NCBI GenBank assembly: GCA_000091205.1
Contig: AP006492.2
DNA length: 64,000 nt
Strand: one strand, 5' to 3'
Origin: Cyanidioschyzon merolae
Taxonomy: Eukaryota
Within the stretch, counting starts at the first letter, position 1. The number at the start of each line of letters is the position of its first letter. Below the pieces are notes generated by a model. It was not told the origin of the DNA and ran no database searches. It saw nothing but the letters and a program-made list of their open reading frames with translations. Position numbers and translations under genes: made by a program. Shown in pieces: positions 1 to 52,750 of the stretch.

Positions 1-3000
1 GTTTCGTTGTGCAGAGGGTCACGAGTTCTGGGCGAACCCGAATAACATACGGCGAGGGATTCGTGGCCATGGAACGCAGCGCAAGCCGAGCTGGTGCCCG
101 CACTGCGCGCGTGAGCGCCGCCAAAAGTCTTGAGTCCAGCACGCTGTGCACAGTGCTCGAGAGCCTGCACACAACCAACGACATTCGTCGCTGGTTTGAT
201 GGACTCCGAGCATTTCAAAGCAGCAAGAGTGTCGTGCGGCAGCTCTAAGGGTCATCATGGCGTCGATTGCGCGCATGAAGGGTACGGAAGTTCGATTGTC
301 GAGGCCGGAACGCTAGCCTGGTGGCGGATGACACGGATCACGACGCAGCGCATCGTCGGCTTGAGACCGCCCGGAACGGCAGTTCCTCAGTCTGGGTACA
401 CCTGCATCATCAACACGCTTCGTTGACGCTGGAGAAGAGACTGATGGCGATTGTTGGTAACGTTGTGCGGTGGATGTGGCGCTCGCCCTACAGTTTAAAG
501 TTTTCGGGATTGCATTTTTTGTGCTTAAGGTTGTTTTTAGAAATCGCATCACTTTAGGACTCGAATACGCAACAGTGGGCCGGTACGCTAGATTTTGCGA
601 GCTAGAACTTTGGACACGAGCGCGTCGTAGGGACCCCGTATGGTCGTAAAGGTATGGCGTGCACCCCGTACGGAAACGGAAACGAGACACCGCGCGGTGT
701 GTTGTTATCACGATTGTCAGGTTCTATCATACGTTGTACATAAAGGTCAAATCATGGGACGTCATGGTCGTTCGCCATGTACCGAAAGGAACTGGTCTTA
801 GCGTACATGACCTGCGCTGCAGCCTCGCTGGATTGCTGAACCGCATCACGCCGGGGCATCGCTCCAGACAAGAATCCAATGTAATGAGGCGTACCCACTG
901 GTTTCATGATCCCAAGTGAGCAGCGTTTCAGCACAATGCCCTCACTGAATACGAAATGAATCCCTCAAGGGCTCGCCTGAAAGCAAGAAGCTGGACGCTC
1001 GGGAAGCTCGAACGATTTTCCGGAATTTTGATCGAGCATACGGCGTCTCGATATAGAAGGTGCTTCCGCGCATCGCTGCTGCTAGAATGATACCCAAGTT
1101 AGCCGCGCATCCGCGATTGCCTCGGCATCTGCTCTTCGATCAGCGTACCGTGCGCCATCTCGTGCGTCCGCCTCTGTTCCACGTTCGTCTGTTCTATCTG
1201 TTCCAGCGTGCACCTACGCTAGTGATTTGTTGATTTCGTCCGGATCGCATCGATGAGAATCGAGAACGATGGCGTCCTGGAAGCGTTGTACACTTACGTC
1301 AGTGGAGCATGCGTACAGCGTTTGAGCGCTGCAGCATGCCGAGCGCAATGGATACCCACAACTCAATGCGACATAGCGGCCATTTCCTCATCCAACTCTT
1401 TGAACAAGTTGCCGAATGCAAGTTTTTCGTCAAAGTACAAGTGAAACAATTGGCGGCCCAACACGTTTTCATATATTCCTGCGAAAAATCGTCGACGTGC
1501 GCCGTTTCAACGCCCATTTACGCGCTTGATCAAGCGTACGAAACATCCACCTCTGCTCTATACGGTGCTGAGGACGTCGATATCAAAATCCTGGCGTCGT
1601 CACGCGCCATGCTGATATGCTTCCTGGCATTCAGTGTGCCCGTCCCTCGATAAATTCGGAACCGCGCATACGTTGAGCAGGTTCATCTGCTTTCCAATCA
1701 AGTTTCTGGCGTTGTGCTCTTGGTTTCGAGGCACGACGATCTCCTTGGTGACCGTCGCTCCAGGAAACACGCTCATCACAAAGTGCTTCTCTTCATTGAC
1801 ATAATTCCGTTGAAATTGTGTCCCGTTGCTCCACGCAGGCCTGAGCTTCACTGCGTGCATATAGATCGGTGTTCCGTCGCTCTCCATCGTACTCATATAT
1901 TACGCTTCACGTACTCCTCGTAAACATGAAACATTGAACGAGCTCCGCCGGTGCACTCTGCCATGGTGTTTGAATGCTTCATACTTGCTCGCAGAAACGA
2001 TCTCCTTATCCGCTTCCACCATTGCGTGGGCGGATGGCATGCATGTGATCTTCATTCTCTAAATCCACTTTTTCCATGGTTTCAGACATAATCGGGGACG
2101 ATGGCGCTCGAGCTCGCCTCTTCGATATATGGGTCGAGTATTCCGCAGGTACTTTGCGTCACCTTCTCTGGAGCGGGCACGCCTATGGGCCGCAGCGCGA
2201 CTTTCCGCCCCGCCCTGCGTACGAGCAGGAGTTCCTTAGCTCGCTTCAGGGCTAGCACAGCGAAAGAATGGTTCGTAAACGAACATTGCCACGGATGCGA
2301 ACGACTCGTCTATTGATCTGTGAGCATCAAATTGGTGTTGGATAACAGAAAAGACGCCTTCGACTGGACTGAATCAGAAACAATAGACTGCACCGGAGTG
2401 CAGCGCAAAGTCGAACTATGCTGTGAAATATTGCACGGTTTTTGGGCGATAAAAAGTGACCTCGACATAGCGCATGACAGACGAGCATCGGACGGCGACG
2501 GCACGAAGCATGCATCGACAAAACGTCATATGATGAACGATCTTTTCTGTTGGACGCTTCATAGGCAAGCGCGCGACTGAGTCGGCTACGAGGCCCATGA
2601 TTTCGAAATGCTTGCTCGTCGCTTCTTCATGATGAGCAGATTTTCCCGCTTTGAGTACCCCGAGAAAGGTCTACGATTTCTCCCGAATGAAGTTTCATTG
2701 AGCAAGACGAACACCTGCCGCTCCTGTAATACGCGTTCACGTTTCAGTGCGAAATCAATCGGTTGTTGTTCGATGCACGACGCTCTCGAGCAGAAGCAAG
2801 CCTTATCGCGTTGTCCATCGGTTTCTTTTCTTCACCTTTCATAGCACCGGTAGAGACGCATCATATCGCGTGGCTCGTTTCGACTTCATTTCATCATAGA
2901 TTGTATGAAAAAGAAAGGATTGGCGAAGAGACATTCGCGCGGCAAGCGTTTGATAATTTCTGATTCAGTTGCACAACGTTCAGGGTATTGACTACCAGAA

Positions 3001-3443
3001 CGGTGGTTCATCCATCTGGTTCATGTGAAATAACTGACTTAAGCAATAAATCCCGTTTTTCGCGAGAGACCAGTGACACCATCGATTCCTTCCTCAACCA
3101 TTCCCCAATCTACAGGATACGTTTCTTCTGTTGAATTCCTGTAAGAAAAACAAACAAAAGCGGAAAAGCGTGCACTGATAAGAGCATTATGCAAGTCACT
3201 ACGCTTCCCCTAACGCTAGGCTCCGAACACGACCGCGACGGTGTATTCGCCTCGGTGGTCTTCGCTCTGACCCCAATCCATGGAAGCGAGCCGAATGCAT
3301 GTACATCGAGACGCAGCGCGTTCACGTGGTCAGCATATCCAGAGAAGCAAACCTGATGTGCGTAGACAGCTGAGGAGGCGTCGCTGCATCGGCTGCTGGG
3401 GCGCAGATTTTGCCCATTGTTGCAGCGCGGACAAGTGTTCCGA

Positions 3444-4035
3444 ATTCTCGAAAATTTACCTTCTAGGTGGAAGGTCTCGCGAGCCGGACGAGCCTGCCGG
3501 GCATACGCCCTGTGCGCCTCTGCAGCGACCGATGCTGTAGGGAGATCTCCGCTGCCCCTCGGCAACGTAATCAATCTGGGGCTCGCAGCGAGTATGCTGC
3601 GTTTCCGCGTCGCGCAGGTCGCAGAGGACTCCGAGCATATCGCTTCGCGCTATCGCAGGCAATACGTCTGTATGCGCATCTTGCAGGCTCCCTGAATGAC
3701 AATGAATCCCGAATCCATATCGTGCAGAACACGCCTCGAGCCGACGCCCTCTGTGGTATAGAAAAGCCGTCCTACGTCCGTGATGCATCCGTACCAAAGG
3801 TAAAGACGCCACTGCGGACTATCAGGGCAGGCATTAGGTGTCCGATAGAACGTAGGAAACGACCAGAATATCCGAGAAAAAGTATAGGTAATGTAACATG
3901 GAAGTAGGGCGTTTGAAGGATACTTCACCTCGCACTAAAAAAACACAAAAAAAAAGTAAGAAAAGAAAAATGCGCGTGATCGGAGAACGCTGGCACAAGT
4001 ACACCTTTTGTCCATGAAAAAAAAATCGGTGCTTC
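3444..4035 (+). repeat. Solo copy R1 of interspersed 'H+T' repeat family: head module (attctcgaaa..ggaaggtctcgcgagccggacgag) plus A-rich tail (cactaaaaaaacacaaaaaaaaag..atcggagaacgctgg..gtccatgaaaaaaaaa)
   Basis: Nucleotide similarity read directly to copies at 9033-9650, 13230-13700, 19176-20020, 41290-41660(rc), 51300-51730(rc); shared head 'ttctcgaaa.t.tacctt.taggtg.aaggtc.cgcgagccggacga' and shared tail 'atcggagaacgctggc..gttttgtccatgaaa'. No ORF. SINE-like (A-rich 3' end). Confidence 0.6.
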
Positions 4036-6151: not shown

Positions 6152-6398
6152 TCCATTGAGGTCCCTACGCTTTACTTAGAGCTTTTCGTTCGCTTTTAAG
6201 CCGAGACGGCAGGTTGCGCAACGTCATCGAGTTGTAGACGCGCACGAATAGCGAGTGCTTATTTCTCGACACGATGAAACTGGATTCGGAAAATAGATTC
6301 ATGAACTAAAGAGTGAACTGATTCCCGATGGAGGCCGAACGCCGTTCGAAAGTCGAACGACGGCAGTGCACCGTAGTGGCGAGAAGGCCGCCCTAGAC

Positions 6399-8674
6399 TT
6401 AACGACTCCAACTGGCGTACTGACGCTTCCTAGGCTTTCTGGACCGGCCACCCACTACTGATTCCAACTTCTTCTCATATAAATCAACTTTGAGAGGTTG
6501 TCCAATAAAGTTCTCTCGTGTCCGCTCTGGAGGTCTTTTCTCCAGCACCGCGCATCTCCTGATATTGATAGCGGCGTTGAAGTCTCGGTTAACGAACTCC
6601 ATACGCTTCTTGCCATCATTGGTTGTACATACTAATGCAATGAGTCCACGAACTTTTGCCTTCCGTTCCATTTGCTCTCCCGTCAGCGGTCCGTACTTTG
6701 CAATTTCCTCAGGACTCCTCTGGCACTTTTCCATCTCCAGGCTCTGGAGTGTGCACCCCAGTTCATGATGTGTATAAAATGTTCGAAACTCATGGATCGG
6801 TATTGTGACAAAACGCCGTGCACACTCCTTGTACGTTCTTGTCGTCGGAGCTGGCAGAGTTCCTTTTTGGGTGTTCCATCGCCCTGCTCCGTACGCTACT
6901 ACAAGCCTCTGTCTTTCATCCTTCTTCGAGGCGCTCAACTCATTGAAAAAATTCGCGAACGCCCGCTACCTCCCACCATATAGATTCGTACGCAGACGAG
7001 CCCACCGGGGCTCTGTATACTCCTCCCACAGCGCCTCCCAATGGGCAACAAGAACTTCCATGAAATTCCGAAAAGCTGTAAAGTCCGCTCCTCGGCTCGT
7101 CACCTCGCTCATAGCTTCAAGGTGATCCTTCATTCCTGCGTTCCACGTAACGATTTTCTTCCTTGCATTCATTATACCGGATTCTCGGTAGTATCTTGCT
7201 CTGGAGAACCTCCAAAGGCGCATGTCTTTCTGACGTAATTTGCCGTCAGTACCATATTCCGCACGCTTCGGTGCTGTGATGGTTATGATATTCGTGTTCC
7301 CAGGGTCTGCGCCGACGACAAAGTCGTTATCTTGGACTCTCTCCGTCGCAGGACCCGCCTCCTTCTTTTCTTCATGTTTCGCCGCGCCAACGACAAGGTC
7401 GTTATCCCGCACCTCCTGCATTGCAGGACCCGCCTTCTTCTCATCTTCATCCTTCGTGACGGGCGCAGCCAAAGGCGGACCAGCACGATCTTTCTACAAC
7501 CGCCGATAGTGTACACACAAGGCTACTCCATCGGTTTCGATCAACCCAGTGAACCACTTTTGCTCGCTCATTTTGAGACGTTTGAAATTGAAGATATTCT
7601 TCCAGTACGTTTCCCGGTTTTCATCGGAGAACTCCTCCCTGTTACCATTGAACTCCGGACTGATCCCCTTCATGATGCCGTAAAGGACTCTGGAGTCGGT
7701 ACTCACGAAATGTGACTTGATGTTGCACATTGGAACGACGTTGAAGCGCTTCCCCATTGGGACAGCCTTCCGTCTCTCCCACTCTTCATTTTTTTTCCCC
7801 ACTCAGCTTCATCTCTGCTTTGCGCTCGAGTTCTCGGTCCATGAACACGAAATACCGTACGACGAGGCGATCGTATCTTTCCTTATCTTTTTTCATGTCT
7901 GATATCTTGTCTGTTGGATTCGCCAACCCAGTACCGCACGATGCTCTTGAATAGCCGCACGGATTACAGAAGCTTCATTCGTGCTCTCGTTTGACGCCTT
8001 CTCGTCGACAAATTCGACCTCATCTTCACGCTTGCGATCTTTCACGATGTCGTTGATAATCGCCCATTTCCCATGGCGAGAGATGCCCTGGTACAGCGCA
8101 AACACGGCGCGTATCATGAAACGTTCGGGGTTCACTGTCAAATGGTTCTTCAGATTCGTGAAGTACTTCATTGCCCCGTCTGTGTAAATATCCCCGTCAC
8201 CCTTGTATCGAGTACCCTCGAGGCTGTAAAAGGGATGTTTTTCGTGGAGAGCATGCACTAGCTCATTTTGCCTCCTCGTTTCCCCTGTACCAAGCATCAG
8301 GTAACGAATAAAGTCTTATCGAAAAACTCGTCCGGAATCTCGACCGTTTCCGTGTGCGTCACGTCTCCGTACATCTCCCTCGCCAAATGAATCAATCCTG
8401 ACGACACCTCGACAACACGCTTGGAGTACGAGTCGACACGTTTTGCTGATACCCTCTCGCAACTTTTCCCTCTAGGGATCCTTGATATGTCCAAGACGAA
8501 AAGGTTTTCACCATAATATCGTCGTGCTGTCGTCTTTCCTGCAGCTTCTGACGTTGGACCTCTCCGTTTTGCCTCTTCGTCTTGTATTGTGGCTCCGGGC
8601 TTGGTACTTTTGTTCGTTTTTTTTCTGGCAGCCGGCGACACCTGTCTTCCAGGATCCTTCATTTCCATGTCCAT
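6399..8674 (-). pseudogene. Disrupted Fanzor/TnpB-like nuclease ORF (copy A): frameshift at ~8297, frame break 7802-7893, in-frame stop 7494-7496, ~69-bp tandem duplication at 7290-7450, frameshift 6938-6966
   Basis: Pieces align colinearly to copy B, but sit in different frames or are separated by stops. Start ATG 'MDMEMKD' at 8674; stop TAA at 6399-6401. Confidence 0.65.
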
Positions 8675-8900
8675 AGCTTTCCTTTGTTATTTTTTTGAAG
8701 AAGAGCGCACATGAAACGCGTTTGCTGTACACCGCGGGAAAGCACTTGAGTACACGCATTTGAGGGTTGAAACACGGTTGCACTGACAGACTATACGCTG
8801 CTAGGGCTTTAATGCAAATACAACTCGTACGTTATAGCAATACGCTCATATTAAGGATCGCGTTTCCCAGTTACGGCAAGATGCGCTTTGCGTCTCATGC
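6399..8900 (-). mobile_element. Fanzor/TnpB-like (IS605 OrfB family, RuvC nuclease) element, copy A, including conserved 5' noncoding region (8675-8900) and 3' region
   Basis: Conceptual minus-strand protein assembled from ORFs 8297-8674, 7893-8297, 7494-7802, 6966-7472, 6399-6938: RuvC-I '[13 protein letters not shown]' (Asp ~7306-7308), 'TSRGADF', 'RLVVAYGAGRW', Zn-finger region 'EFRTFYTHHELGC..LVC', RuvC-III 'VNRDFNAAINI' (6571-6597). ~50-60% aa identity to copy B at 41969-44094. Confidence 0.75.
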
Positions 8901-9032
8901 ATGCCAGATATGGAGATGCGCGTCTTGACTGCGCTCTAAAATAAAGAGCGGATAGGAACCTCTAAATACCAACTATATAACAATTTCTGGCCCCGCCTGC
9001 GATAAACGTTGAAAAAGGGAAAAGCTTACGGT

Positions 9033-9650
9033 ATTCTCGAAAGTATACCTTTTAGGTGCAAGGTCCCGCGAGCCGGACGATTCTGCCAGGGTTGTGCCTC
9101 ATGGTCGCCGCAGTGCTTCGTGCTGTAGTAAGATCTGAGCAGTTCGTCCGAAACGCAGTTGATTCTGGTACTCGTAGCGGGTATGCTGCACGTGGGCGTC
9201 GCTCTGGTCGCAGTGGACTCCTCGAATATCGTTTCGCGCTGCCACCGGCACTACGTCCGTCTCTACTGTTTCCACGCTCCCGGAATAATAATGTACTCCA
9301 GACCACGTGTCGGATGCATCATAATTCGATCCGACGCCCTCAGAAGCATGGAAAACCCGCCCTGACTTCGTGCTGCATCTGCCGCAGCGGTCTGACCGCA
9401 GACGCGGGTGCCCCAGACAGGCAAGACCCCCGATAGAACGTAAAAGAACGATCAGTATTTTCGAAAGCAAGTCTGAATGATAGACCTTGGTACACCAGCA
9501 TGACGAACGCTTTGTTTCGATTACCAGTACGCATCCCGCAATCTGGGATCCTTCGTCAATGGAACCGGTTTATCAAGAGTAGAGAAGATCACAAGCAGCG
9601 TGGCCGCCGCCTGCCTGACACAGCGGCTACACGGCCTACAGCATTGCTGT
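9033..9650 (+). repeat. Copy R2 of the H-module repeat (no A-rich tail), abutting the 5' end of Fanzor copy A in divergent orientation
   Basis: 'attctcgaaagtataccttttaggtgcaaggtcccgcgagccggacgat..gctgtagtaagatctgagcagttcgtccgaaacgcag' matches R1/R4/R5; downstream 'gcatcccgcaatctgggatcc' matches internal part of R4 (19690). Confidence 0.55.
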
Positions 9651-10445: not shown

Positions 10446-11876
10446 ATGCGTAAAATGCTCGACACGATGTTGAAGAACGCTCCCGAGCGTCCCGCGGCCT
10501 CCGATATCCGCATCCCCGGTGAGCCAGGAGGCACCGGCACCAGCCGCGCGCGCGCACATGCACCCCGAATCCGCGCCCCTGAGCATGGCTCGCTGTCGAC
10601 GAGCGGGCCTCTTCCTTCCAGTGCCTTGGCAAAGCTGGGTTTCTCAACGAAGGTTTCCGGGTTGCGGGCGCTTGTGCTGCGCGCTGTCGCAGGCAGAGGC
10701 GGGCCCGGGTGCGTTTCGTTTGCTCGGGCGCGCTTTCGCCGTGTAGGTCCGCCGGACGGTGGCACCGGTGGCGACGGCGGGAACGTCATCGTTCAGGTCA
10801 GTGCGTCCGTGAGCTGCTTGCCTTCTCATCGGCACGTGGTCGTCGTGCGTGCAGAGAATGGTGCTCCAGGCCAACGCTGGGAACGGAGTGGACGTCGCGG
10901 CAAGGACGTGCGCTTCGTGGTGCCTCCAGGCACCTGGCTGCGCTGGCTGCGTGATCCAAGCACCATCGACAGTAGTCGCCCGCATGTGTTTCTGAATCTG
11001 AACGATACCGAGGATGACCAGCGCATGAACGACGCGGTACAAGCTCTTTCGGCCTTGGAGCCGTCTTGCTTTGCGCGAAACGATGCGTCTGATTCTGTTA
11101 AATTTGATGTGGACGACGGAGCGGCAACGTCGGCGTCCTCGGATTTCCCGGCGTCCGTCAAGTCCGCACCCGCCCATGTTTTGGTGAAGAGCAGCGTTGT
11201 TGCTGCCGCAGGCGGTAAGGGAGGACACGGAAACACCTTTTATCAGTCGTCGGTGAATCGCTCACCAAAGCAAGCGCAGGCGGGTCTTGAGGGCGCCGAA
11301 CAGCTCGTGCTGCTCGAGCGGCTCCCAGTCGCTGATATCGCCATCGTCGGTGCCCCGAATGCCGGCAAGTCGAGTTTGTTGGCAACATTGACGCGTGCGC
11401 GGCCTGAGATTGCGCCAACCCCATACACCACGACGGAGCCGATGCTGGGCGTACTCGAAGATCACCAGACCTGGATGCGGTCGATCCTGGTGGAGATTCC
11501 CTCCAAGACCCTGGAAGACGCCCAGCAAAGCCCGGAACTTGTGTGGCACTTATTTCGCGCGTGCCGTCATGTGGTTGCAGTGGTCGACCACCAGCGTACC
11601 GCGGGCAATACGCGACTGCTGCGGGAGCAGGTTCGTGCTCTGCAACGCATGGTCGCACCTCGAGTCCTCGCTGGTTGCGTCGTGCGTTCGCATTTGCTCC
11701 AGGGCCAGCCACAAAAGGACCAAGCGATGCCGCAACACATGGAAGGCGTGGCGTTGCTTACGCGTTTAGCGGATGTGCGCCAGGCTTTACTCAAACTAAC
11801 CACAGAGCCACCCTGGGTGCTTCACACGGACAATGAACAGGGAACGCGGCATTCGCAACGGATGCTTGGGCGTTGA
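10446..11876 (+). CDS. Obg/CgtA-family GTPase-like protein (Obg glycine-rich N-domain + P-loop); probably organellar
   Basis: ATG at 10446. 'FRRVGPPDGGTGGDGGNVIVQV..RAENGAPGQRWERSGRRGKDVRFVVPPGTW' = Obg fold; G1 'IVGAPNAGKSSLLATL', G2 Thr 'YTTTEPMLGV'. Canonical G3 DxxG and G4 NKxD not evident. Confidence 0.55.
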   Translation: MRKMLDTMLKNAPERPAASDIRIPGEPGGTGTSRARAHAPRIRAPEHGSLSTSGPLPSSALAKLGFSTKVSGLRALVLRAVAGRGGPGCVSFARARFRRVGPPDGGTGGDGGNVIVQVSASVSCLPSHRHVVVVRAENGAPGQRWERSGRRGKDVRFVVPPGTWLRWLRDPSTIDSSRPHVFLNLNDTEDDQRMNDAVQALSALEPSCFARNDASDSVKFDVDDGAATSASSDFPASVKSAPAHVLVKSSVVAAAGGKGGHGNTFYQSSVNRSPKQAQAGLEGAEQLVLLERLPVADIAIVGAPNAGKSSLLATLTRARPEIAPTPYTTTEPMLGVLEDHQTWMRSILVEIPSKTLEDAQQSPELVWHLFRACRHVVAVVDHQRTAGNTRLLREQVRALQRMVAPRVLAGCVVRSHLLQGQPQKDQAMPQHMEGVALLTRLADVRQALLKLTTEPPWVLHTDNEQGTRHSQRMLGR

Positions 11877-18545: not shown

Positions 18546-19175
18546 ACAAGGAGTGCCCGATGTCGCTGCTCAAGGAACGTGTCGATGACGCCCTATGCAA
18601 ATACACGCGGGTACATTGGACACGATTTCGCGTGCGCCGCTCTTCAAACATACACTCTTGGGAAAAACCTTTTTCACGCAGGCGCCGCTGCTTGGTAACC
18701 TATCGCGCAGCAGTGATCCAGCGTGTCTCGACCTGACACCTTCATTCATGAACCCGCGCTTCATACCAAGCAGCAGAGCATGGAGCCAGAATCTCTGTTA
18801 TCCGACGCTGTCTGCATAGAGGAGTGCTCGCATGCAACCTGCTGGCGCATGTGGATACGCGTTCTTCACAGCTTTCTGCCCTTGGACTAGTCTACGGGCG
18901 TGCGCGCTCACTTTCCCCGAAAGTCGATAGAGCAATCACTCGACGGCACCAAGCGTCGTCATTCTTCGCGGGAAACGTCGTCTTCGCTTCGATGGTTGTC
19001 GACAACAGTCGCGCATCCAGGGGATACTGGTACCATGCATCAGTCGCATGCAATCAGTGAACACACTGAACGAGATACCAGAAACAAAACGAGAGAAACC
19101 AAATTCTAACTAGCGTCTAGATAAGAATGTCGTTCAAACTTCACGGTAAGCATTGACAGGGAGACGTTTTCCGCG

Positions 19176-20020
19176 TATTCGAGTGTTACGCTTCTGGGGG
19201 CAGGAGGCCCCGCGAACCGGACGAGTCTACCGGGCTTGCGCTCCGTGTGCCTCTGCATTGCCGGGCTCAGGAGCAAGACGCAAGGAACTCGTTCGCCACG
19301 CAGTTCATTCTGGGACTAGGAGCGGTTGGGCTGTCTCTGGGCGTCGACCTGGTCACGGAAGTCTCCAAGCATATCGCTCCACGCTGCCGCAAGCTGAAGA
19401 GCTGGCTGCGCAACTCGCACGCTCCCAGCAGGACGAAGAGGCCGGATTCCTTGTTCAATGAACCACGCCTCGAGCCGACACCCCCAGTGGTGTGGCAAAG
19501 CCGTTCTGACTGGGTGCTCCATTCGCACCGGCGGTACAGACGTTACGGTGGGTGCTCACTGGATGCGCTCAGTCCACGACAGATCGTATCGAGCGACCAG
19601 TCCATCCGAGAGCAAGGATCGGAGATGGAACTTGAAGGTACACTGAAGAATAATGGACGCTTTTCTTAATCTCAATATGCATCCCGCAGTCTAGGATCCA
19701 CGCTCCAAGTAAACGTTCTGGATGAACAAACGCAATCCACAAGGGTCGTCTGCGCCGCTGTGCCGCTCCGGGAACGCGGCAGCGATCCATGCAATCGCCC
19801 AGCTCGCTTGCAACGCATGGCGATCGTCCCGGAGGCGCGGCCGGAGCGGCAGCTCAAGGCAACGAAGGGCGAGGCGAGGCAGCGCGGTGCGGCAGGCGCC
19901 ACCGGCGGCGATCGCATCGATCACATGCACCGCGCACTGAAAAACCCCCCAAAAAGAAAGGCAAAATGCGCATCATCGGAGAACGCTGGCCTGAGTGAAC
20001 GTTTTGTCCATGAAAAAGAA
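19176..20020 (+). repeat. Solo copy R4 of the H+T repeat family (longest copy, ~845 bp, extra internal segment)
   Basis: Head 'ggaggccccgcgaaccggacgagtctaccgggc', body 'cacgcctcgagccgacaccc', tail 'cactgaaaaaccccccaaaaagaaaggcaaaatgcgcatcatcggagaacgctggcctgagtgaacgttttgtccatgaaaaag' match R1/R3. Confidence 0.6.
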
Positions 20021-20249
20021 AATCGATCGCATGCGCGCCAGCTGCGCGCACACGCACGTCGCTGCCGGCAGTTCAAAATCATTCGCCGCTGCGCAACGCA
20101 CAACGCGATCCTGGACAGTTGCCGCATTCCCAGGGCGCACGCGCGTGGCGCCCTTCGTGCATCCGACGGTTGCGGAGGTACTGGTGCTGGTACCCGCGAG
20201 CGTGGACATTGCTTTCCACCAAGTGCTGGGTTGGCGACAGGCCCCTTGG

Positions 20250-21818
20250 ATGAATGAACCTCCAACGTTTGGATCAGCGTCAGCGCTGACGGATCCGCGA
20301 AGTCAAAACGGGGTACCTGAGCGTGCTGACGCTTTTCCTGGGCGCTACGAACAGCGTGTCCCGTTTACGGTGCGATGCGTGCGTACCGGTAGCGAGCGCA
20401 CGCAGGTTCCGCTGCGTGTTCAGCTGCGTGCAGACGGCGCTGATCAGGAGGCTGGGGATGATGATGCATCTGCACCTCCTTGGGAGTCCTCGGAGCGGTA
20501 TGCTCGTGGAATGGGTGTGTCTGCGGCCTCAGCGAGCGAACTGTCGACTGGCCGACGCGTCGCGCACGTCGGACCGCTGGCGCTGCGAACTTTGCGACTG
20601 CGTATCACTGACCCCGCAGACCCGATCTTTCTATACGAGTGGCGCATGACAGAGGAAGAGTATCCACGGTTCAAGGCAGACCAGTGTCTCTTTGTTGATT
20701 TTGGCCGCTTTCCGCGAACACTGGTGGACCTCTTCGAACAGTGTCGTCGGGAGGGAAGCGGTTTTCACGCCTTGCTCCGCCTGGAAGACGGGGCAGCACG
20801 ACTTTCGGTCTTCGAAACGACAGCGTTCCGAAACTTGCCGCACTTGGCATTGGAATTGCAGGCAGCGAGCGGGGAACGGCTACAGCGCTACCTCGTCTCG
20901 AGTCTGCACAGCGCGGAACGGAGAGCTACCCGTTTGGAGGAGTCCATGGAGCAGATGCGCCGATCACTAGACGAGCGCACGGCTCGAGTCCAGGAGCTCA
21001 TGGGACAGGTGGCGCAACTCCAACAAGAGCGCTCTCAGGCAGCGGAGGCAGCACGGGCCCAGCATCAGGCCGAGCTCGCCGAGGTCCGCGAGCAAGCCCT
21101 CAAAGAGGCGCTCCAGAGACAGGAGCAGTGGCAGCAGGAGCGTCGTGCACTCGAAGAACGATATCGGGAGGAGATAGCCACGCTCTCGGAGCGAATACGA
21201 CAGAACGAAACGGACATGCAGCGGCTCACCGACGAACGATACGCCCGTGAGCAACAGATTCGGCAGCTCGAGCTACGCCTGAGCGCCCAGCAGAGCGAGC
21301 ACGAAACCATGCGGTCGGAGCTGGACAGAGTGCGCCAGGATCTTCGGGAGCGCGCCCGTGCGGTGCACGAGCTTGAGCGACAACTGGACGCAGTGAACGC
21401 CCAGATCCAGGGACTGGAGCGGGCCCTGCAAGACAAAGACGCCTGGATAGAACGCATGCGCCAGATGCTAGAGCTTGCGAACGCTCAAAAGAGCACACTG
21501 GAAGAGACAATTTTAGCCCATCGGGAGGCTCGGGCACGCCTCGAACGACAGCTCGAGGCAGCAGCTGCCGAAATAGAGCGCGGCAATAGTCTCCTGGAGC
21601 GATTACAGTCAGCGCTCCGCGAGGCCAAGACGAAGGCGCGACTCAAGGCTGCGGTTGCGGAGCAGCAGGAGGCGCTGCTGCGAGAGCGCCAGCGCGAGAT
21701 CGACGCTCTGAGAGAGCAGCTCACCGCGCTGACGACGCACACACGACCATGGCGTGCCCCTGGGGCTCCCCCGGAGCCGACCTCGGCATCAGCAAGCTCA
21801 GAAATTTCCGCCCCCTGA
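20250..21818 (+). CDS. SAS6: SAS-6 centriole cartwheel protein homolog (N-terminal head/PISA domain + long coiled coil)
   Basis: 'LRLRITDPADPIFLYEWRMTEEEYPRFKADQCLFVDFGRFPRTLVDLFEQC' matches the conserved SAS-6 PISA region (DPFFLY..EEDFQ.LK..QGLLVDF..FP...I.LL..C); followed by ~350 aa of heptad coiled coil. ORF-track start 19995 is GTG inside repeat R4; first post-repeat ATG 20250 used (20031 alternative). Confidence 0.7.
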   Translation: MNEPPTFGSASALTDPRSQNGVPERADAFPGRYEQRVPFTVRCVRTGSERTQVPLRVQLRADGADQEAGDDDASAPPWESSERYARGMGVSAASASELSTGRRVAHVGPLALRTLRLRITDPADPIFLYEWRMTEEEYPRFKADQCLFVDFGRFPRTLVDLFEQCRREGSGFHALLRLEDGAARLSVFETTAFRNLPHLALELQAASGERLQRYLVSSLHSAERRATRLEESMEQMRRSLDERTARVQELMGQVAQLQQERSQAAEAARAQHQAELAEVREQALKEALQRQEQWQQERRALEERYREEIATLSERIRQNETDMQRLTDERYAREQQIRQLELRLSAQQSEHETMRSELDRVRQDLRERARAVHELERQLDAVNAQIQGLERALQDKDAWIERMRQMLELANAQKSTLEETILAHREARARLERQLEAAAAEIERGNSLLERLQSALREAKTKARLKAAVAEQQEALLRERQREIDALREQLTALTTHTRPWRAPGAPPEPTSASASSEISAP

Positions 21819-40817: not shown

Positions 40818-41289
40818 CGCACACGTCCTCTCAAGCGCTCTCGTTCGTCGAGGTACTCGGGCACTGCACGAGCGAATGTGTGCAGTAGTTGACTGCGCCA
40901 GGAACGCACTACGAAACGACTTGCTCAAGGCGGCAGTCCGTAACGTTACTGCACAGAACATGAGTAATAAGCGTCGTCCCGAGGGTACGAAGTCGTCTGC
41001 GGCAGTCGACGACTGGCGGCGACGCGGCGATTGCGGCGCTTCTGGTTGACGATTTCTCTTTGTCTTGACAAAACGTTTACGTTGACCACGGATCACAGAC
41101 TGCGGGATGGATATCGGTTGTCGACAAAGCATCTGTCATACTGCGCCCTACCTCCAAACTCCATTTCGCATATCTCCTTTCGGATATACTGGCTGTTTCG
41201 CACGTTCCATCGTGCGGCGGTTTCTGGCTTTGAGCACCCGCCGCCGCGCCCCAACCATTTACACGGATGCATCACGGAGGCAGACTGAC

Positions 41290-41660
41290 ATTGCCATACC
41301 GTATGAGGCATCGGCTCGAGGCGCCGTTCCTTCAACACAGACTCCACGTGCATAGTCATTCTGGGAGCCTGCAAGTTCCGCACCCAGACGTACTGTCTGC
41401 TGCAGCGCGAAGCGAAATACCAGGAGTCTACTGCTACCAGGGCGACGCCCAAACACAGCCTAACTGCCCCTAATCCCAGAATGATTTGCGTTTCGGACGA
41501 GCTGCTCAGACCTCACTACAGCACCAGCTACTGGGTAGCGTACGGAGCGCCTGACCCGCGGACTCGTCCGGCTCGCAGGACCTTCCGCCGAAAAAGTAAA
41601 CGTTCCGCAGTATGGAAAACTTTTCCTCCTTTTATCGTTCATCGTAGAGAGGGAATGAAA
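41290..41660 (-). repeat. Copy R5 of the H-module repeat (no tail), abutting the 5' end of Fanzor copy B in divergent orientation
   Basis: Reverse complement reads 'gaacgtttactttttcggcggaaggtcctgcgagccggacgagtccgcggg..gctgtagtgaggtctgagcagctcgtccgaaacgcaaatcattctgg..acgtctgggtgcggaacttgcaggctccc..cctcgagccgatgcc', matching R1/R2/R4. Confidence 0.55.
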
Positions 41661-41759
41661 TATATATTTGCTGGTAAATCGAGAGTCTCTGTACAATTTT
41701 TTCATATAGCGCGTTCCATACGCGCACCCGGGAGATCAGGCCGTCACATGACACGACGG

Positions 41760-44160
41760 GCATGACGCCGCTGAAGAGAAACGTAATATGGACTTGTTGA
41801 CCTGTTCCTCGAACGTATGCGTTGTAACGGTGTTGAAGTCAGAGCAAAATACAGTGTTTGATCTCAATACTATTTCAACCCTCAATTGGTTGTTCCCAAA
41901 AGCTTTTTCGCGGTTTACAGCACAAGCGTTCAAAGTGCGTTCGTTTTCGAGAATAAAAAAGGAAAGTTATGGACAAGAGAGTCGAGGCCTGCGGAGGCCA
42001 CGTGTCACCAGGTTCGACAAAACACTGGAAAACAGTGCGGGGCCCAGAGCGACAGGAGAAGGGGAAAGAGCAAAACTGGGAGCTCGCACATCAACTGCAA
42101 CTCGAAAGACGATACAATGACGAGAACGTAGAGAGAGCCTGTCTTCCAGGCCATCTCAGGGCTCCTTACAGAGAAAAGATGCAGGAGGGCATCAGAAACC
42201 GCGTCCTATCGTAATCCAGGAGTATTTGAAAAGCTTCTCTTTGATTGATGCATTTGGTGAGGGACCTTTACCATGACGTTACGGACATCAAAACAGTCGA
42301 GGTTCCGGAGGAGTTTTTCAGTGTGACCTTCATCCGCCAACTGATGCTTGGCCCAGAGCGAACCTCGACGATAGACGATCGAGTGCGAGCCCTACACCAA
42401 ACATATGCCTTCTACCGCTTCAACGGTTCTCGATACAAGGGTGACTTGGGCATTGACACCTACAGGGCGATGAAGTATCTCGAAGACTTGAAGAGCCACC
42501 TGATCGAAAACCTCGAAAGCTTCATGAACTGCTCCGTCTTCGCGCTCTACGATGGCCTCTCTGTCCGCGGGAGATGGGCGATCATCAATGGCATCACGAA
42601 CGATCACCAGGATGAAGCGGAGATAGAATGCTTCGGTGCGAAAACATCGTACAGGTGTACGTATGAGAATTCTGTGATCTGTGCAGCCATTCAGGAGCAC
42701 CTTGCGGTACCGGGGCTTGTCAACCCTGCAGAAAAGGTATCAGAGATGAAAAGAGATACGAAAAGATTCATCCCCTCATTCTGCGCTATTTCGTGTACCT
42801 GAACCGAGAGCTCGAACGCAAGGCGGAGATGCAGCTGGGTGAAAAACGAAATGGAGCGCCGGAAAAACGGAAGGCTGCGCTTCTGAAGAAGCGCTTTCAC
42901 GTCGTTCCGATACGCAACACCATGTTGCACTTCGTGACCATCGACTCCAGCGTCCTTTACGGCATGATGCAGGAGATCAGTCCGAAGTTCGACGTCAGCT
43001 CGGAGGAGTTCACGGGGATAGACTGGGAGACTCATTGGAAAAATGTCTTCGATTTCAAAGGTATCAGGAAGAGCAACACAGAAGCATTCGCAGGCAAGAT
43101 CGAAACCGATGGGGTATGCATATGTGTACACTCCAGGCGCTTGAGCAGGCATCGTCATATCCTGTCATCGTTTTCGCCCTGGACGAAGCATCAAAAGAGA
43201 GAGGCGATCCATATGCTGTACGAGCCGCAGAAGAGCGACTTTGTCGTCGGCGTGGACCCTGGAAAGAAGGATATCATGGCCGTCGCTGTGCCATAGTATG
43301 CAAAAGACGGTATCAATGCCAACTTACGCCAAATGGACATGCGTATGTTGAGGTTCTCGACGGCTAGATTCAACAGAGAGTCGGGGATGATAGGTGCCTT
43401 GAGGCAAACCGAGGCTTGGAACTCAAGATTGAAGGAGCACCTGGAAGCGGTCAGCAAAGTGACGAGCTGCGGAGCGGACTTTCGGACCTATCTGGAATTC
43501 ATGGAAACGCACGCTGCGCATGATGGGGACCTGTGGAAGGAGTACATAAAGCCCCGATGGGTTCGTCTGCCTATGGACCTGTACGGAGGGGAGCAGCGTG
43601 CATTCGCCAATTTCTTCAATGAGTTCTGCGCCCTCAAAGAAGGCAAGAGTCAAAGGCTCGTAATAGCGTACGGAGCAGGGAGCTCGTTGCCCGAAAACGG
43701 GAGCACACCGGCACCGTCGACACAAGCGTTCATCGAGTGCGCAAAGCGTTTTGTCACTGTCGTAATAGTCGAGTTCCGAACGACCTGCGTGCACCATGAG
43801 CTGGGCTGTACACTCCAGAAGGTCAGGATGGGGACACAGCCGCCGAGCTCTTCGGGGAAAGAAAATCACGGGGAGCGAACAGAGCGGCCGATGCCACAGA
43901 GGGCGCTAGTTCGAGGACGCCTTCTGTTGGACACTACAGTCAGCGCCATGAAACGCAGGGAGTTCGTGAACCGAGACTTCAACGCCGCCATGAACATCAG
44001 GCGATGTGCTCTGCTGAAGACGAGACCCCCGGAGCTTACGCGAGCGAACTTCGAGGGTAGCTTCCCGGGCTCGACGTGTGCTGGGGGAAACTGAATCCGA
44101 CAGCAGTCGACCGGTCAGAAAAGGATGGGAAGCGTCTGCGAGTGGGGAGATATATATTAA
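41760..44160 (+). mobile_element. Fanzor/TnpB-like (OrfB family, RuvC nuclease) element, copy B, with conserved 5' leader and 3' noncoding region
   Basis: ORFs 41969-42214 / 42245-42802 / 42793-43296 / 43333-44094 are colinear with copy A. RuvC-I 'DFVVGVDPGKKDIMAV' (43247-43293), 'TSCGADF', 'RLVIAYGAGSS' (43666-43680), 'EFRTTCVHHELGC', RuvC-III 'VNRDFNAAMNI' (43969-43995). Upstream 41810-41968 is ~80% nt-identical to 8675-8860(rc). Confidence 0.75.
41969..44094 (+). pseudogene. Fanzor/TnpB-like nuclease ORF (copy B), nearly intact: one frameshift near 42748-42795 and one in-frame TAG at 43297-43299
   Basis: '..IMAVAVP*YAKDGINANLRQMDMRMLRFSTARFNRESG' aligns to copy A '..[36 protein letters not shown]' across the TAG, so the stop replaces a sense codon. 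Start 'MDKRVEAC' ATG at 41969. Confidence 0.6.
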
Positions 44161-45099
44161 CCCTCCACTGTTGTGAGACATTTTTCGTTTTTTTTACGGT
44201 ACGGAAAGAATGAGCATAAAACAGACTGGAAGCTGCGCGATTCGGTTTAGCGGCAGGAAGTGCTGCGCAGATGACTCGCCATTGCCCATGCAGTGGCAAT
44301 ATTCTTGCTACCAATGACCATTTTGCGTGTTCAGGTGGTGTCCATCGAGGAAGGACCCCAATATTCCGTTTTGGTGTCGTGCCTTTGGTGGCACCCATCG
44401 CCTCCTTCGCAACATCCTCTTTAAACTCAACATACAAGCCCGGATAACCGGCAGCGTGCACACATCCGGGAAGGCTTGCTAGGTCCATCGTCCATGCACC
44501 AACAAAATTGTGCCTGGAGACACCCTCTGCCAAGAAGTCGCTGCGCAACTCGCGCCAACAATTCTACGCAGGAGTCTGAGCAGTCTCCGAGCAGTCACCA
44601 GCCGTAGCTGCAGCCACGGATTTTCGCGACACACGCTCAAATGCTTTCCTGGCGCCTGGAAGTTTACTCAATCAGCGCAATGCGGTACATGCCTCTGGTA
44701 TTTCGCAGCACGCATTGTCGTCGTGCATGGACGCTGAAACGCTGTCTATCAAAGAATCCTCTACTCGTATTGTGACGCTGAACACAGCCGCGACTTCACC
44801 GAAATGCGTGCCCCAGTGTGTGGACGATGCGTAGCGCCGTACGACATCAACGCTTCTCCAGTGCCTATGCGAGGTTCATACGGAGCTCTGAACTGCGGGC
44901 TCTGTTCCGGACTTGCGCATTTTCCCGGACTTGGTTTCAGAAATGTAGTCTAGACGTTTGAAGTGCAGCAGTAGGGTCTTGGAGATTCATGCGTTGCTTT
45001 AGGATTCTTGGTCGTCTTTTCGATCTGGCGCTTTCGATTCGCTGCCGACGGAGCTCGTAACTTTACGGGAATCAGGATGATTCGCGGCAGCTTCGAACG

Positions 45100-51849: not shown

Positions 51850-52750
51850 TAGTTAAGGGGCACAAGAAGAAGGAACTGGTATATATAAGCATCAACGTTG
51901 CGTTCGAACTACTTTGCAAAGCGCGGTGGCGGCGCTCGGACAAGGTTTCTCGATAACAGGAAAGAAATACCGGAAACGTTTATCCGGACGATGGAGACCG
52001 ACGGGATGCCAACCAGCATGCACCTTGCAGCACGTATGCCAGAGTCGAGCAGCCAGACTCATTTCCAACCGTTCAAGGTTGATGAACAAACAGAGACTTT
52101 GTGGTCGGGGTCGATCCGTGTCACTCGGCATCATAGCCGTCTCCGTACCCCTGCATCAAGAGGGCAGTGCTAAAGACCTACAAGGAGAGCAGATAAAGCA
52201 GCTCGAATTTTCCAGTGCTCGATATGATCGGCAGTCGGGCATGGTAGACGCCAGGCGGCATACCGTCCAGAGGAATGGTTGCTCGAGAGCCCATCTCGAC
52301 GCCCTGAGGACGGTGGCGCGCAGAGGGTAACGCTTTGTGCGCCTCATGCAGAGGGGGAGCTCATGAGCGTCAAACTGGCTCCAGCGGACGATCTTTGACA
52401 AGAACGCGTGGTGCCGAGCAGGGCACGCACATGGTGCTGGCTCCGCAGAGGCGAGAAGCTCGTGTTCGCAGACTTTGTGGTTGATGTGGGAAACGAAGTG
52501 ACCGCCCAGTCGGGTCGATTGACGGTAGCCTATAGCGCTGGACCTACTCCAGCTCACAAAGTCTGCAGTGATGCTCGCTCCCGTCGAGAGCTTGCTACAA
52601 GTTCAGGGATTGATTCTGCACGATTTCGACCGACGCATTCACACCGTCATGCACGCAGCACGATCTCGGGTACAGGCTGAAACTTGTCGAGAAGAGGCGA
52701 TTGAATTAGAGACCGTTGCACGAGATGGTGTGCGATACGCTGCTTGAACG
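51850..52750 (+). pseudogene. Degenerate remnant of a third Fanzor/TnpB-like copy (C)
   Basis: Frame-hopping matches to copies A/B: 'FLDNRKEIPETFIRTMETDG' (51930-51990) ~ 'FDFKGIRKSNTEAFAGKIETDG'; 'DFVVGVDP' at 52097-52120; 'LEFSSARYDRQSGMVDARRH' ~ 'LRFSTARFNRESGMIGALRQ'; 'RLTVAYSAGPTP' ~ 'RLVVAYGAGRW'; 'SARFRPTHSHRHARS' ~ 'HEFRTFYTHHELGC'. Confidence 0.55.

Follow-up and report, generated by a model that had tools for sequence, protein, structure and literature searches.

Two decayed transposable elements, here called copies A and B, lie within a 64,000-nucleotide stretch of Cyanidioschyzon merolae DNA (contig AP006492.2), which is referred to below as the window. Both are very probably decayed CMe-1 elements of the Fanzor1 type, whose catalytic triad would be made up of the Asp of a DPG motif, the Glu of a DEF motif and the Asp of an NRD motif, and in which the Gly of a conserved AYG motif is normal for the family and not a lesion. 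The arrangement is already known, and the transposable element family has already been catalogued in the same genome. A preliminary description of the window had drawn attention to this glycine, placed it at the RuvC-II position where TnpB nucleases carry a catalytic Glu, and proposed that the Glu of either of two downstream motifs, HEF/VEF or KEC/IEC, could be the relocated residue.

The glycine motif in copies A and B

On the plus strand of copy B, positions 43666–43680 translate as AYGAG, within the longer segment RLVIAYGAGSS (43654–43686), in the frame of a 253-codon open reading frame (ORF) at 43333–44094 and with the Gly codon at 43672–43674. In copy A, which is read from the minus strand, RLVVAYGAGRW runs from 6908 to 6876 and AYGAG from 6896 to 6882, with the Gly codon at 6888–6890. 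Translation thus confirms the motif LV[VI]AYGAG reported for both copies; for copy A the location given earlier holds, while its coordinates (~6882–6911) were off by at most 3 nt, the actual span being 6876–6908. The two downstream motifs are also where they had been placed, with KEC upstream of HEF in copy A and IEC upstream of VEF in copy B. The copies are 66% identical as DNA across ~3.2 kb and 45–49% identical as protein and, because they are homologous over this length, they share the motif by inheritance and not by chance.

Fanzors and the CMe-1 family in the literature

Fanzor1 proteins are eukaryotic, TnpB-derived, ωRNA-guided DNA endonucleases with a single RuvC active site. Jiang et al. 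reported that in all Fanzors the RuvC-II Glu is replaced by Pro or Gly, that an alternative conserved Glu lies ~45 residues away, and that the E467A mutant of ApmFNuc is inactive (PMC10530073). Fanzors were subsequently defined by a DPG motif together with this alternative Glu (Ealt), which precedes the zinc finger by six residues (Yoon et al. 2023, PMC10711439), and the structure of ApmFz2 shows a Glu shifted by 50 residues (PMC11832414). The preliminary description was therefore right that a rearranged Glu exists, but its restriction to some Fanzor1 and TnpB clades does not stand, the trait having been published as defining all Fanzors (PMC10530073, PMC10711439, PMC11832414). It follows that the AYG Gly is expected and not anomalous.

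The elements of C. merolae were described by Bao & Jurka in 2013 (PMC3627910), the authors who defined the Fanzor1 group and who list CMe as one of its families. Their CMe-1A comprises ~150 copies of ~3 kb that are ~80% identical to the consensus and have no terminal inverted repeats (TIRs), some of which still encode intact proteins, and its 5' 635 bp are also found by themselves, as the repeat TE-N2_CMe, with ~70 copies (PMC3627910).

Assignment of the proteins to Fanzor1

Relatives of the two proteins are abundant. A word-indexed homologue search returned 58 of them, mostly JGI metagenome ORFs of 60–80% identity plus two distant ones, and a second search of this type added mainly close CMe-1 fragments and little diversity. 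With a cut-off of E≤1e-3, an exhaustive profile search yielded 3,017 representatives of clusters, most of them 580–700 amino acids long; 418 were at E≤1e-30. A family profile built from a 108-sequence alignment was then compared with all PDB chains, and at E≤10 it matched three Fanzor1 proteins alone, namely those of Parasitella parasitica (PpFz1, 9cf0; E=5.2e-23), Spizellomyces punctatus (SpuFz1, 8gkh; E=6.9e-18) and Guillardia theta (GtFz1, 9cer; E=6e-12). With a profile of nine sequences only a marginal match to SpuFz1 had been obtained (E=9.9).

The predicted fold gives the same answer. An AlphaFold2 model of the reconstructed copy B, computed from a 36-sequence alignment of close relatives, had a predicted local distance difference test score (pLDDT) of 45.6 and was unusable; with an alignment of 111 sequences (A5) the pLDDT rose to 88.1 and the predicted template modelling (TM) score to 0.85. 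When this model was compared with the PDB by Foldseek, SpuFz1 came first (E=5.5e-14, TM 0.61–0.65 over the full length), followed by PpFz1 and GtFz1; the top seven matches were all Fanzor1, with full-length TM scores of 0.50–0.65, and Fanzor2, Cas12 variants and ISDra2 TnpB scored far lower. By these matches the model has the Fanzor1 fold, which is characterised by a WED domain, an enlarged helical REC lobe and a RuvC domain with a TNB module. The marks of canonical TnpB and Cas12 proteins, a Glu on β4 and an Asp-hydrophobic-Gly motif at RuvC-I, are absent, with Gly on β4 and DPG in their place. As sequence profile and fold both point there, membership in Fanzor1 is independently supported, and the proteins of copies A and B are Fanzor1 proteins.

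One precomputed annotation, PF26935, was set aside as a weak DUF8286 match only.

Catalytic residues and the relocated glutamate

In the active site of SpuFz1 two Mg2+ ions are coordinated by D383, E541 and D606 (PMC10432273, PMC11423790). A maltose-binding protein tag on the 8gkh chain gives an offset of 394, which was checked through the D-P-N sequence at D383-P384-N385. In the profile alignment to this protein the Asp of DPG falls on D383, the Glu of DEF on E541 (LLDEYKTS) and the Asp of NRD on D606, the Gly of AYG falls on G505 (FTVVMGDW), and the Glu of KEC/IEC is matched to a Leu. The corresponding codons in copy B, all on the plus strand, are 43255–43257 for the RuvC-I Asp (GVDPG, the DPG motif of Fanzors), 43771–43773 for the relocated Glu (the E of VEF, consensus DEF) and 43975–43977 for the RuvC-III Asp (NRDFNAA), the last also aligning with D361 of ISDra2 TnpB. 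In copy A, on the minus strand, they are 7305–7307 (GADPG), 6789–6791 (the E of HEF) and 6582–6584 (NRDFNAA).

Conservation was counted in alignment A5, whose 111 relatives share ~30% pairwise identity. The AYG Gly and the DEF Glu are each present in 111 of 111, the RuvC-I Asp in 110, the Pro and Gly of DPG in 102 and 110, respectively, and the RuvC-III Asp in all 108 sequences that are not gapped there. The Glu of KEC/IEC is retained in 78 of 111, the other 33 having A, Q, K, V, R or S. The family thus shows three features published for Fanzors: a DPG motif in both copies, a non-acidic residue at the end of β4 (PMC10530073) and a Glu just past β5, six residues ahead of the zinc-finger position (PMC10711439), in this case a His that aligns with TnpB's first zinc-finger Cys.

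In the model of copy B the elements follow one another in the order of a RuvC domain. Strand β1 (333–340) ends at D339 and is followed by β2, β3, a helical insertion and then a strand at 471–478 (RLVIAYGA). Beyond this come a 13-residue loop, a helix at 492–502 that contains IEC, and β5 at 504–509, directly followed by E510; C-terminal to E510 lie a TNB-like module and a helix (577–590) that starts at D578. RLVIAYGA is the sole strand between the helical insertion/α1 and α2, and since classical RuvC order has a single strand there, it must be β4. The Gly and the Glu are 33 residues apart; in SpuFz1 the distance is 36. On the alignment to SpuFz1, the conservation and the model order taken together, the HEF/VEF Glu, and not that of KEC/IEC, is the predicted relocated catalytic residue. 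Model topology and the literature would likewise place the AYG Gly exactly at the canonical Glu position.

A structure prediction of copy B and an alignment with Fanzor1, both among the checks that the preliminary description had proposed, support its central claim that Gly stands at the RuvC-II position and that a Glu further downstream has taken over the catalytic role: the first gave a model with SpuFz1 as its best fold match, and the second carried the triad onto D383/E541/D606. Of the two outcomes it had named as contrary to its view, a conserved Glu on the RuvC-II strand and the lack of any acidic residue able to complete the active site, neither was found.

Points against this reading and alternative explanations

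Several observations weigh against the assignment as set out above. Single-sequence Pfam and PDB searches with the reconstructed proteins of A and B gave no significant match, so that membership in Fanzor1 rests on profiles and fold and not on single sequences; intact relatives searched in Pfam also gave no significant match. The TNB module lacks its CCCC zinc finger in copy A (HHELGC...LVCTT; 6753–6770 and ~6600–6650, minus strand) and in copy B (HHELGC...LLLDTT; 43792–43809 and 43900–43960, plus strand). The spatial adjacency of the triad residues is taken from topology and from published structure-based alignments, which suggest it. The elements fit CMe-1A by host, length, divergence, lack of TIRs and a separate 5' module, a comparison made by description only, and copy B, being 66% identical to A, may be a different or older subfamily member.

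The remaining points of this kind concern ISDra2 TnpB, the sequence of which was verified against 8bf8 and 8h1j and which was also used as a 9-sequence TnpB profile from genome loci. When the family was aligned to it by hhalign, RuvC-I (D191), RuvC-III (D361) and the region of the relocated Glu (on P323/Y324) were matched, but the AYG strand was either gapped, with low-confidence pairing of E278 to the Glu of a conserved LWEEY segment, or, in another run, paired with the lid segment RLALSIS of TnpB, again at low confidence. Because the RuvC-II stretch is gapped or mis-paired in this way, the equivalence of the Gly and E278 is not demonstrable by sequence alone. These alignments are what favours the view that β4 does not correspond to the AYG strand and that the counterpart of E278 lies elsewhere, for example in LWEEY. 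LWEEY lies in a long helix (437–462), in a region of the model with pLDDT above 90, and not in a strand; the RuvC fold needs one strand between α1 and α2, for which RLVIAYGA is the only candidate; the VVMG(505)DW segment of SpuFz1 aligns with the AYG strand; and according to published structure-based alignments the canonical Glu of Fanzors has given way to Gly or Pro (PMC10530073, PMC11832414). We therefore regard this view as highly improbable, even if it fares best among the alternatives.

Slightly less credible still is the proposal that the Gly marks a nuclease-dead family, an RNA-guided DNA binder or a protein with some other role, in the manner of TldR or Cas12k. It draws on the lack of any acidic residue at the canonical β4 position in the 111 relatives, on the loss of the zinc finger in most members and on the fact that the clade has no measured activity. 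Against it, Ealt and both Asp residues are invariant or nearly so among relatives of ~30% identity, and SpuFz1, GtFz1, PpFz1 and ApmFz2 all cleave DNA with Gly or Pro in combination with Ealt, the inactivity of ApmFNuc E467A pointing the same way (PMC10530073, PMC10432273, PMC11423790). A Gly at this position is thus the standard Fanzor arrangement and no sign of an inactive or unusual active site.

Of the two Glu residues put forward in the preliminary description, then, the one in HEF/VEF is retained, being universal in the alignment and matched to E541, and the one in KEC/IEC falls away. The latter is a Glu in both window copies (43735–43737 in copy B, plus strand) and in most relatives, which is the case for it; its loss in the other 33, its position inside helix 492–502, past the lid, and its alignment with a Leu of the active SpuFz1, while E541 aligns with the DEF Glu, leave it with hardly any credibility as the relocated residue.

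Loss of the zinc finger

In copy B, HHELGC (43792–43809) is the remnant found where the TNB zinc finger would have its first CxxC; hhalign matches its first His to the Cys that opens the zinc finger of ISDra2 TnpB. The loss extends well beyond the two copies: neither Cys pair is present in 95 of the 106 relatives that could be scored in alignment A5, and both pairs are present in only five, with the D-E-D triad invariant in the family alignment despite this loss. The model of copy B retains a folded hairpin module at the zinc-finger position, at lower confidence.

In the Fanzor motif of Bao & Jurka (2013, PMC3627910) the segment from [TS][TS] to RD holds a C4 zinc finger, described there as 'strictly conserved' and later ascribed to 'many' Fanzors only (Yoon et al. 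2023, PMC10711439). In view of the later literature and of the listing of CMe itself as Fanzor1 (PMC3627910), the C4 finger is taken here as a frequent feature and not a defining one. We found no discussion of its loss in the CMe-1 clade in the Fanzor literature cited here. It is possible, although we hold this only tentatively and think it rather less likely than otherwise, that the CMe-1 Fanzor1 clade (>3,000 clusters at 50% identity in public data), with ~90% of sampled members finger-less, an invariant D-E-D triad and intact ORFs, constitutes a large, possibly zinc-independent and biochemically uncharacterised branch of RNA-guided nucleases, thermoacidophile-adapted in this host. The finger-less state of so large a clade is the only item that may merit a separate look.

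Copies A and B are pseudogenes

Two intact relatives, P0001 and P0048, served as tblastn queries and, together with three-frame translation, delimited the Fanzor1 pseudogene of copy B (41957–44094, plus strand). It has in-frame stops at 42212–42214, 42227–42229, 42242–42244 and 43294–43296 and a frameshift at ~42706–42769, and departs from the consensus at 14 of ~50 family-conserved columns. That of copy A (6399–8722, minus strand), which is ~70% identical to P0001, has several frameshifts and at least two in-frame stops (7494–7496 and 6966–6968) within otherwise continuous homology. The term 'near-complete' used earlier for both copies is thus apt for their length but not for their coding integrity.

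C. merolae has very few introns, which counts against reading A and B as live genes. That reading, in which introns or recoding would remove the stops and frameshifts, can appeal to the intact proteins of some CMe-1A copies (PMC3627910) and to introns gained by Fanzor genes elsewhere (PMC10530073), but is the least plausible of all, since the stops lie inside alignable coding homology (the TAG at 43294 against the Lys of VAAPKRAE, that at 6966 against the Gln of YGGRQRAF), intact relatives read through these positions, and copy B is off consensus at the conserved columns noted above.

The question of catalytic competence raised in the preliminary description accordingly has two answers. The family looks catalytically competent because its D-E-D triad is invariant; for A and B themselves the question is moot because of the in-frame stops and frameshifts. 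The two copies are inert relics, since a full-length protein is impossible even though the three catalytic codons survive.

The elements and their host

The histidyl-tRNA synthetase (HisRS) ORF of the window is identical at 548 of 548 residues to XP_005534797.1 of C. merolae 10D, and its neighbours, ORFs for Obg, an ABC transporter, patatin, malic enzyme and FAN1, are in keeping with a compact genome poor in introns; an exact-match look-up of the patatin ORF gave no record. The whole of copy B, a CMe-1-like element, spans 41033–44180 on the plus strand and consists of a ~700-bp 5' non-coding module, the Fanzor1 pseudogene and a 3' tail, with homology to copy A ending near 44180; its 5' end lies upstream of the HisRS start codon annotated at 40961, at a distance of 72 bp. 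The whole of copy A spans 6355–9607 on the minus strand, fits the description of CMe-1A and is 76–81% identical to copies on related metagenome contigs (L001–L004). No convincing TIRs were found at the ends of the element, in line with the earlier account (PMC3627910). The loci can be annotated as CMe-1-type Fanzor1 pseudogenes in C. merolae or related Cyanidiophyceae.

Two further decayed pieces raise the number of Fanzor1 loci to four per 64 kb. Fragment C (1024–1794, minus strand) is a RuvC region with seven in-frame stops in which DEF has become DAI, and fragment D (52095–52542, plus strand) reads GVDPC in place of DPG and RLTVAYSAG, with Ser for Gly.

The window has four copies of the ~700-bp 5' module, which is probably TE-N2_CMe: at the 5' ends of copy A (8940–9635, minus strand) and copy B (41033–41700, plus strand), and alone at 3429–3883 and 19082–19780 (both minus strand). 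Each lies just upstream of a divergent host gene, these genes starting at 10446, 40961, 4436 and 19995, respectively, which suggests that the module inserts into promoter-proximal sequence or is used as such. In one of the related contigs (L002, 742–2638) the module is broken by a ~3-kb insertion that bears an ORF with an RVT_1 reverse-transcriptase domain.

A 75-bp (25-residue) tandem repeat lies directly upstream of the RuvC-I β-strand (…QDNDFVVGA) and partly includes it. It is present in 1.9 copies in A (7309–7450, minus strand), 4.0 in the intact metagenome relative P0001 (L001, 7149–7449) and one in B, so that the repeat number in this linker is variable.

The ORF at 19995–21818 (plus strand) has a clear match to SAS-6_N (E=6e-26). 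Red algae, to which C. merolae belongs, are without cilia at all life stages (PMC7503314), and the ORF may encode an XRCC4/XLF-like head-domain protein instead of SAS-6.

A candidate ωRNA and the proposed mechanism

Conservation between copies extends over the final ~170 nt of the element. An RNAalifold consensus contains a long-range stem, CAGTAGTGGGTGG / CGCCACTACTG, that stops 10–20 nt short of the 3' homology boundary; relative to the other copies, B shows two compensatory pairs in it. The putative ωRNA scaffold stem lies at 44097–44174 in copy B (plus strand; arms 44097–44110 and 44162–44174), where folding lends it weak support (z = -1.5), and at 6370–6461 in copy A (minus strand; arms 6461–6448 and 6382–6370), where the single-sequence z of +0.65 lends it none. 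It recurs in the metagenome relatives at L001 8296–8387, L002 5798–5891 and L003 5540–5631. Across the copies the folding z-scores range from +0.65 to -3.0, and an Rfam scan of the window gave no match, the 3' stem included. With z-scores so mixed the stem stays a candidate only, despite some covariation.

The C-terminal tail of the ORF differs between copies, ending with TAA after ...ENFIG in L001 (8250–8259) and L002 and running ~33 codons further in copy A (6399–6510, minus strand) and L003. Because of this variation the conserved 3' region is probably constrained as RNA or DNA and not as protein.

Every Fanzor has a small inert residue in place of the Glu that canonical TnpB and Cas12 carry at the end of β4, here the invariant Gly of (V/I)(A)(Y/F)G; the catalytic Glu would come instead from the loop just past β5, six residues before the TNB zinc-finger position, in the motif DEF(R)(T/S)(S/T). 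The triad codons, putatively at 43255, 43771 and 43975 in copy B and at 7305, 6789 and 6582 in copy A, would be the remains of such a site. In intact members an ωRNA from the 3' end of the element, within the last ~170 nt, would guide the RuvC site (Asp-Glu(alt)-Asp, with two metal ions) to cut DNA flanked by a target-adjacent motif. By analogy with characterised Fanzors, intact members of the family would be active RNA-guided nucleases that use this 3'-end ωRNA, and those in hot-spring metagenomes are possible compact nucleases from a thermoacidophile.

Comparison with known systems

Canonical TnpB (ISDra2, 8EXA/8H1J) and Cas12 proteins share with the CMe-1 family the RuvC fold and the Asp residues of RuvC-I and RuvC-III (D191 and D361), and TnpB would share its role as a transposon-borne RNA-guided nuclease. 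They differ in that the catalytic Glu of TnpB, E278, is on β4, with Pro/Tyr where the CMe-1 family has its Glu, in having Asp-hydrophobic-Gly instead of DPG, and in having a CCCC finger and no large helical REC insertions; the fold match to 8h1j is poor (E=9e-3, TM 0.19). Fanzor2 (ApmFz2, 9B0L) and the TnpB2/pro-Fanzor proteins (for example TvTnpB) have, like the present family, a Glu shifted ~45–50 residues C-terminally (PMC10530073, PMC11832414), but they are much smaller and TnpB-like, with a fold match of TM 0.20 (E=4e-4) and no profile match.

The Fanzor1 proteins of known structure are closer. GtFz1 (9CER) is matched by profile and fold, has the Ealt motif PEHYTS and a β4 Gly (IIGWGNWG), and differs in having Asn for the third Asp and in keeping its zinc-finger Cys residues. 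PpFz1 (9CF0), again matched by both methods, has the Ealt motif DEFRTS and differs in its RuvC insertion (FRI) domain and in the retained Cys residues. SpuFz1 (8GKH, 9CEU–9CEZ) has ~15% identity to the family and keeps the CCCC finger (CPRC...CTNPNC) that the CMe-1 clade has lost, and its elements have 30-nt inverted repeats, of which none were found in copies A and B; it nevertheless shares the DPG Asp, the β4 Gly (G505), the Ealt (E541, in DEYKTS) and the NRD Asp (D606), together with the best fold match (TM 0.61–0.65).

Closest of all is CMe-1A itself, with which the elements share the C. merolae host, a length of ~3 kb, 76–81% identity between copies, the lack of detected TIRs, the lone 5' module and the coding of a Fanzor1 protein, copy B differing in that its 66% identity to copy A falls below the ~80% given for CMe-1A. 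The relocated Glu came to be recognised only after the 2013 paper, which makes no mention of it (PMC3627910).

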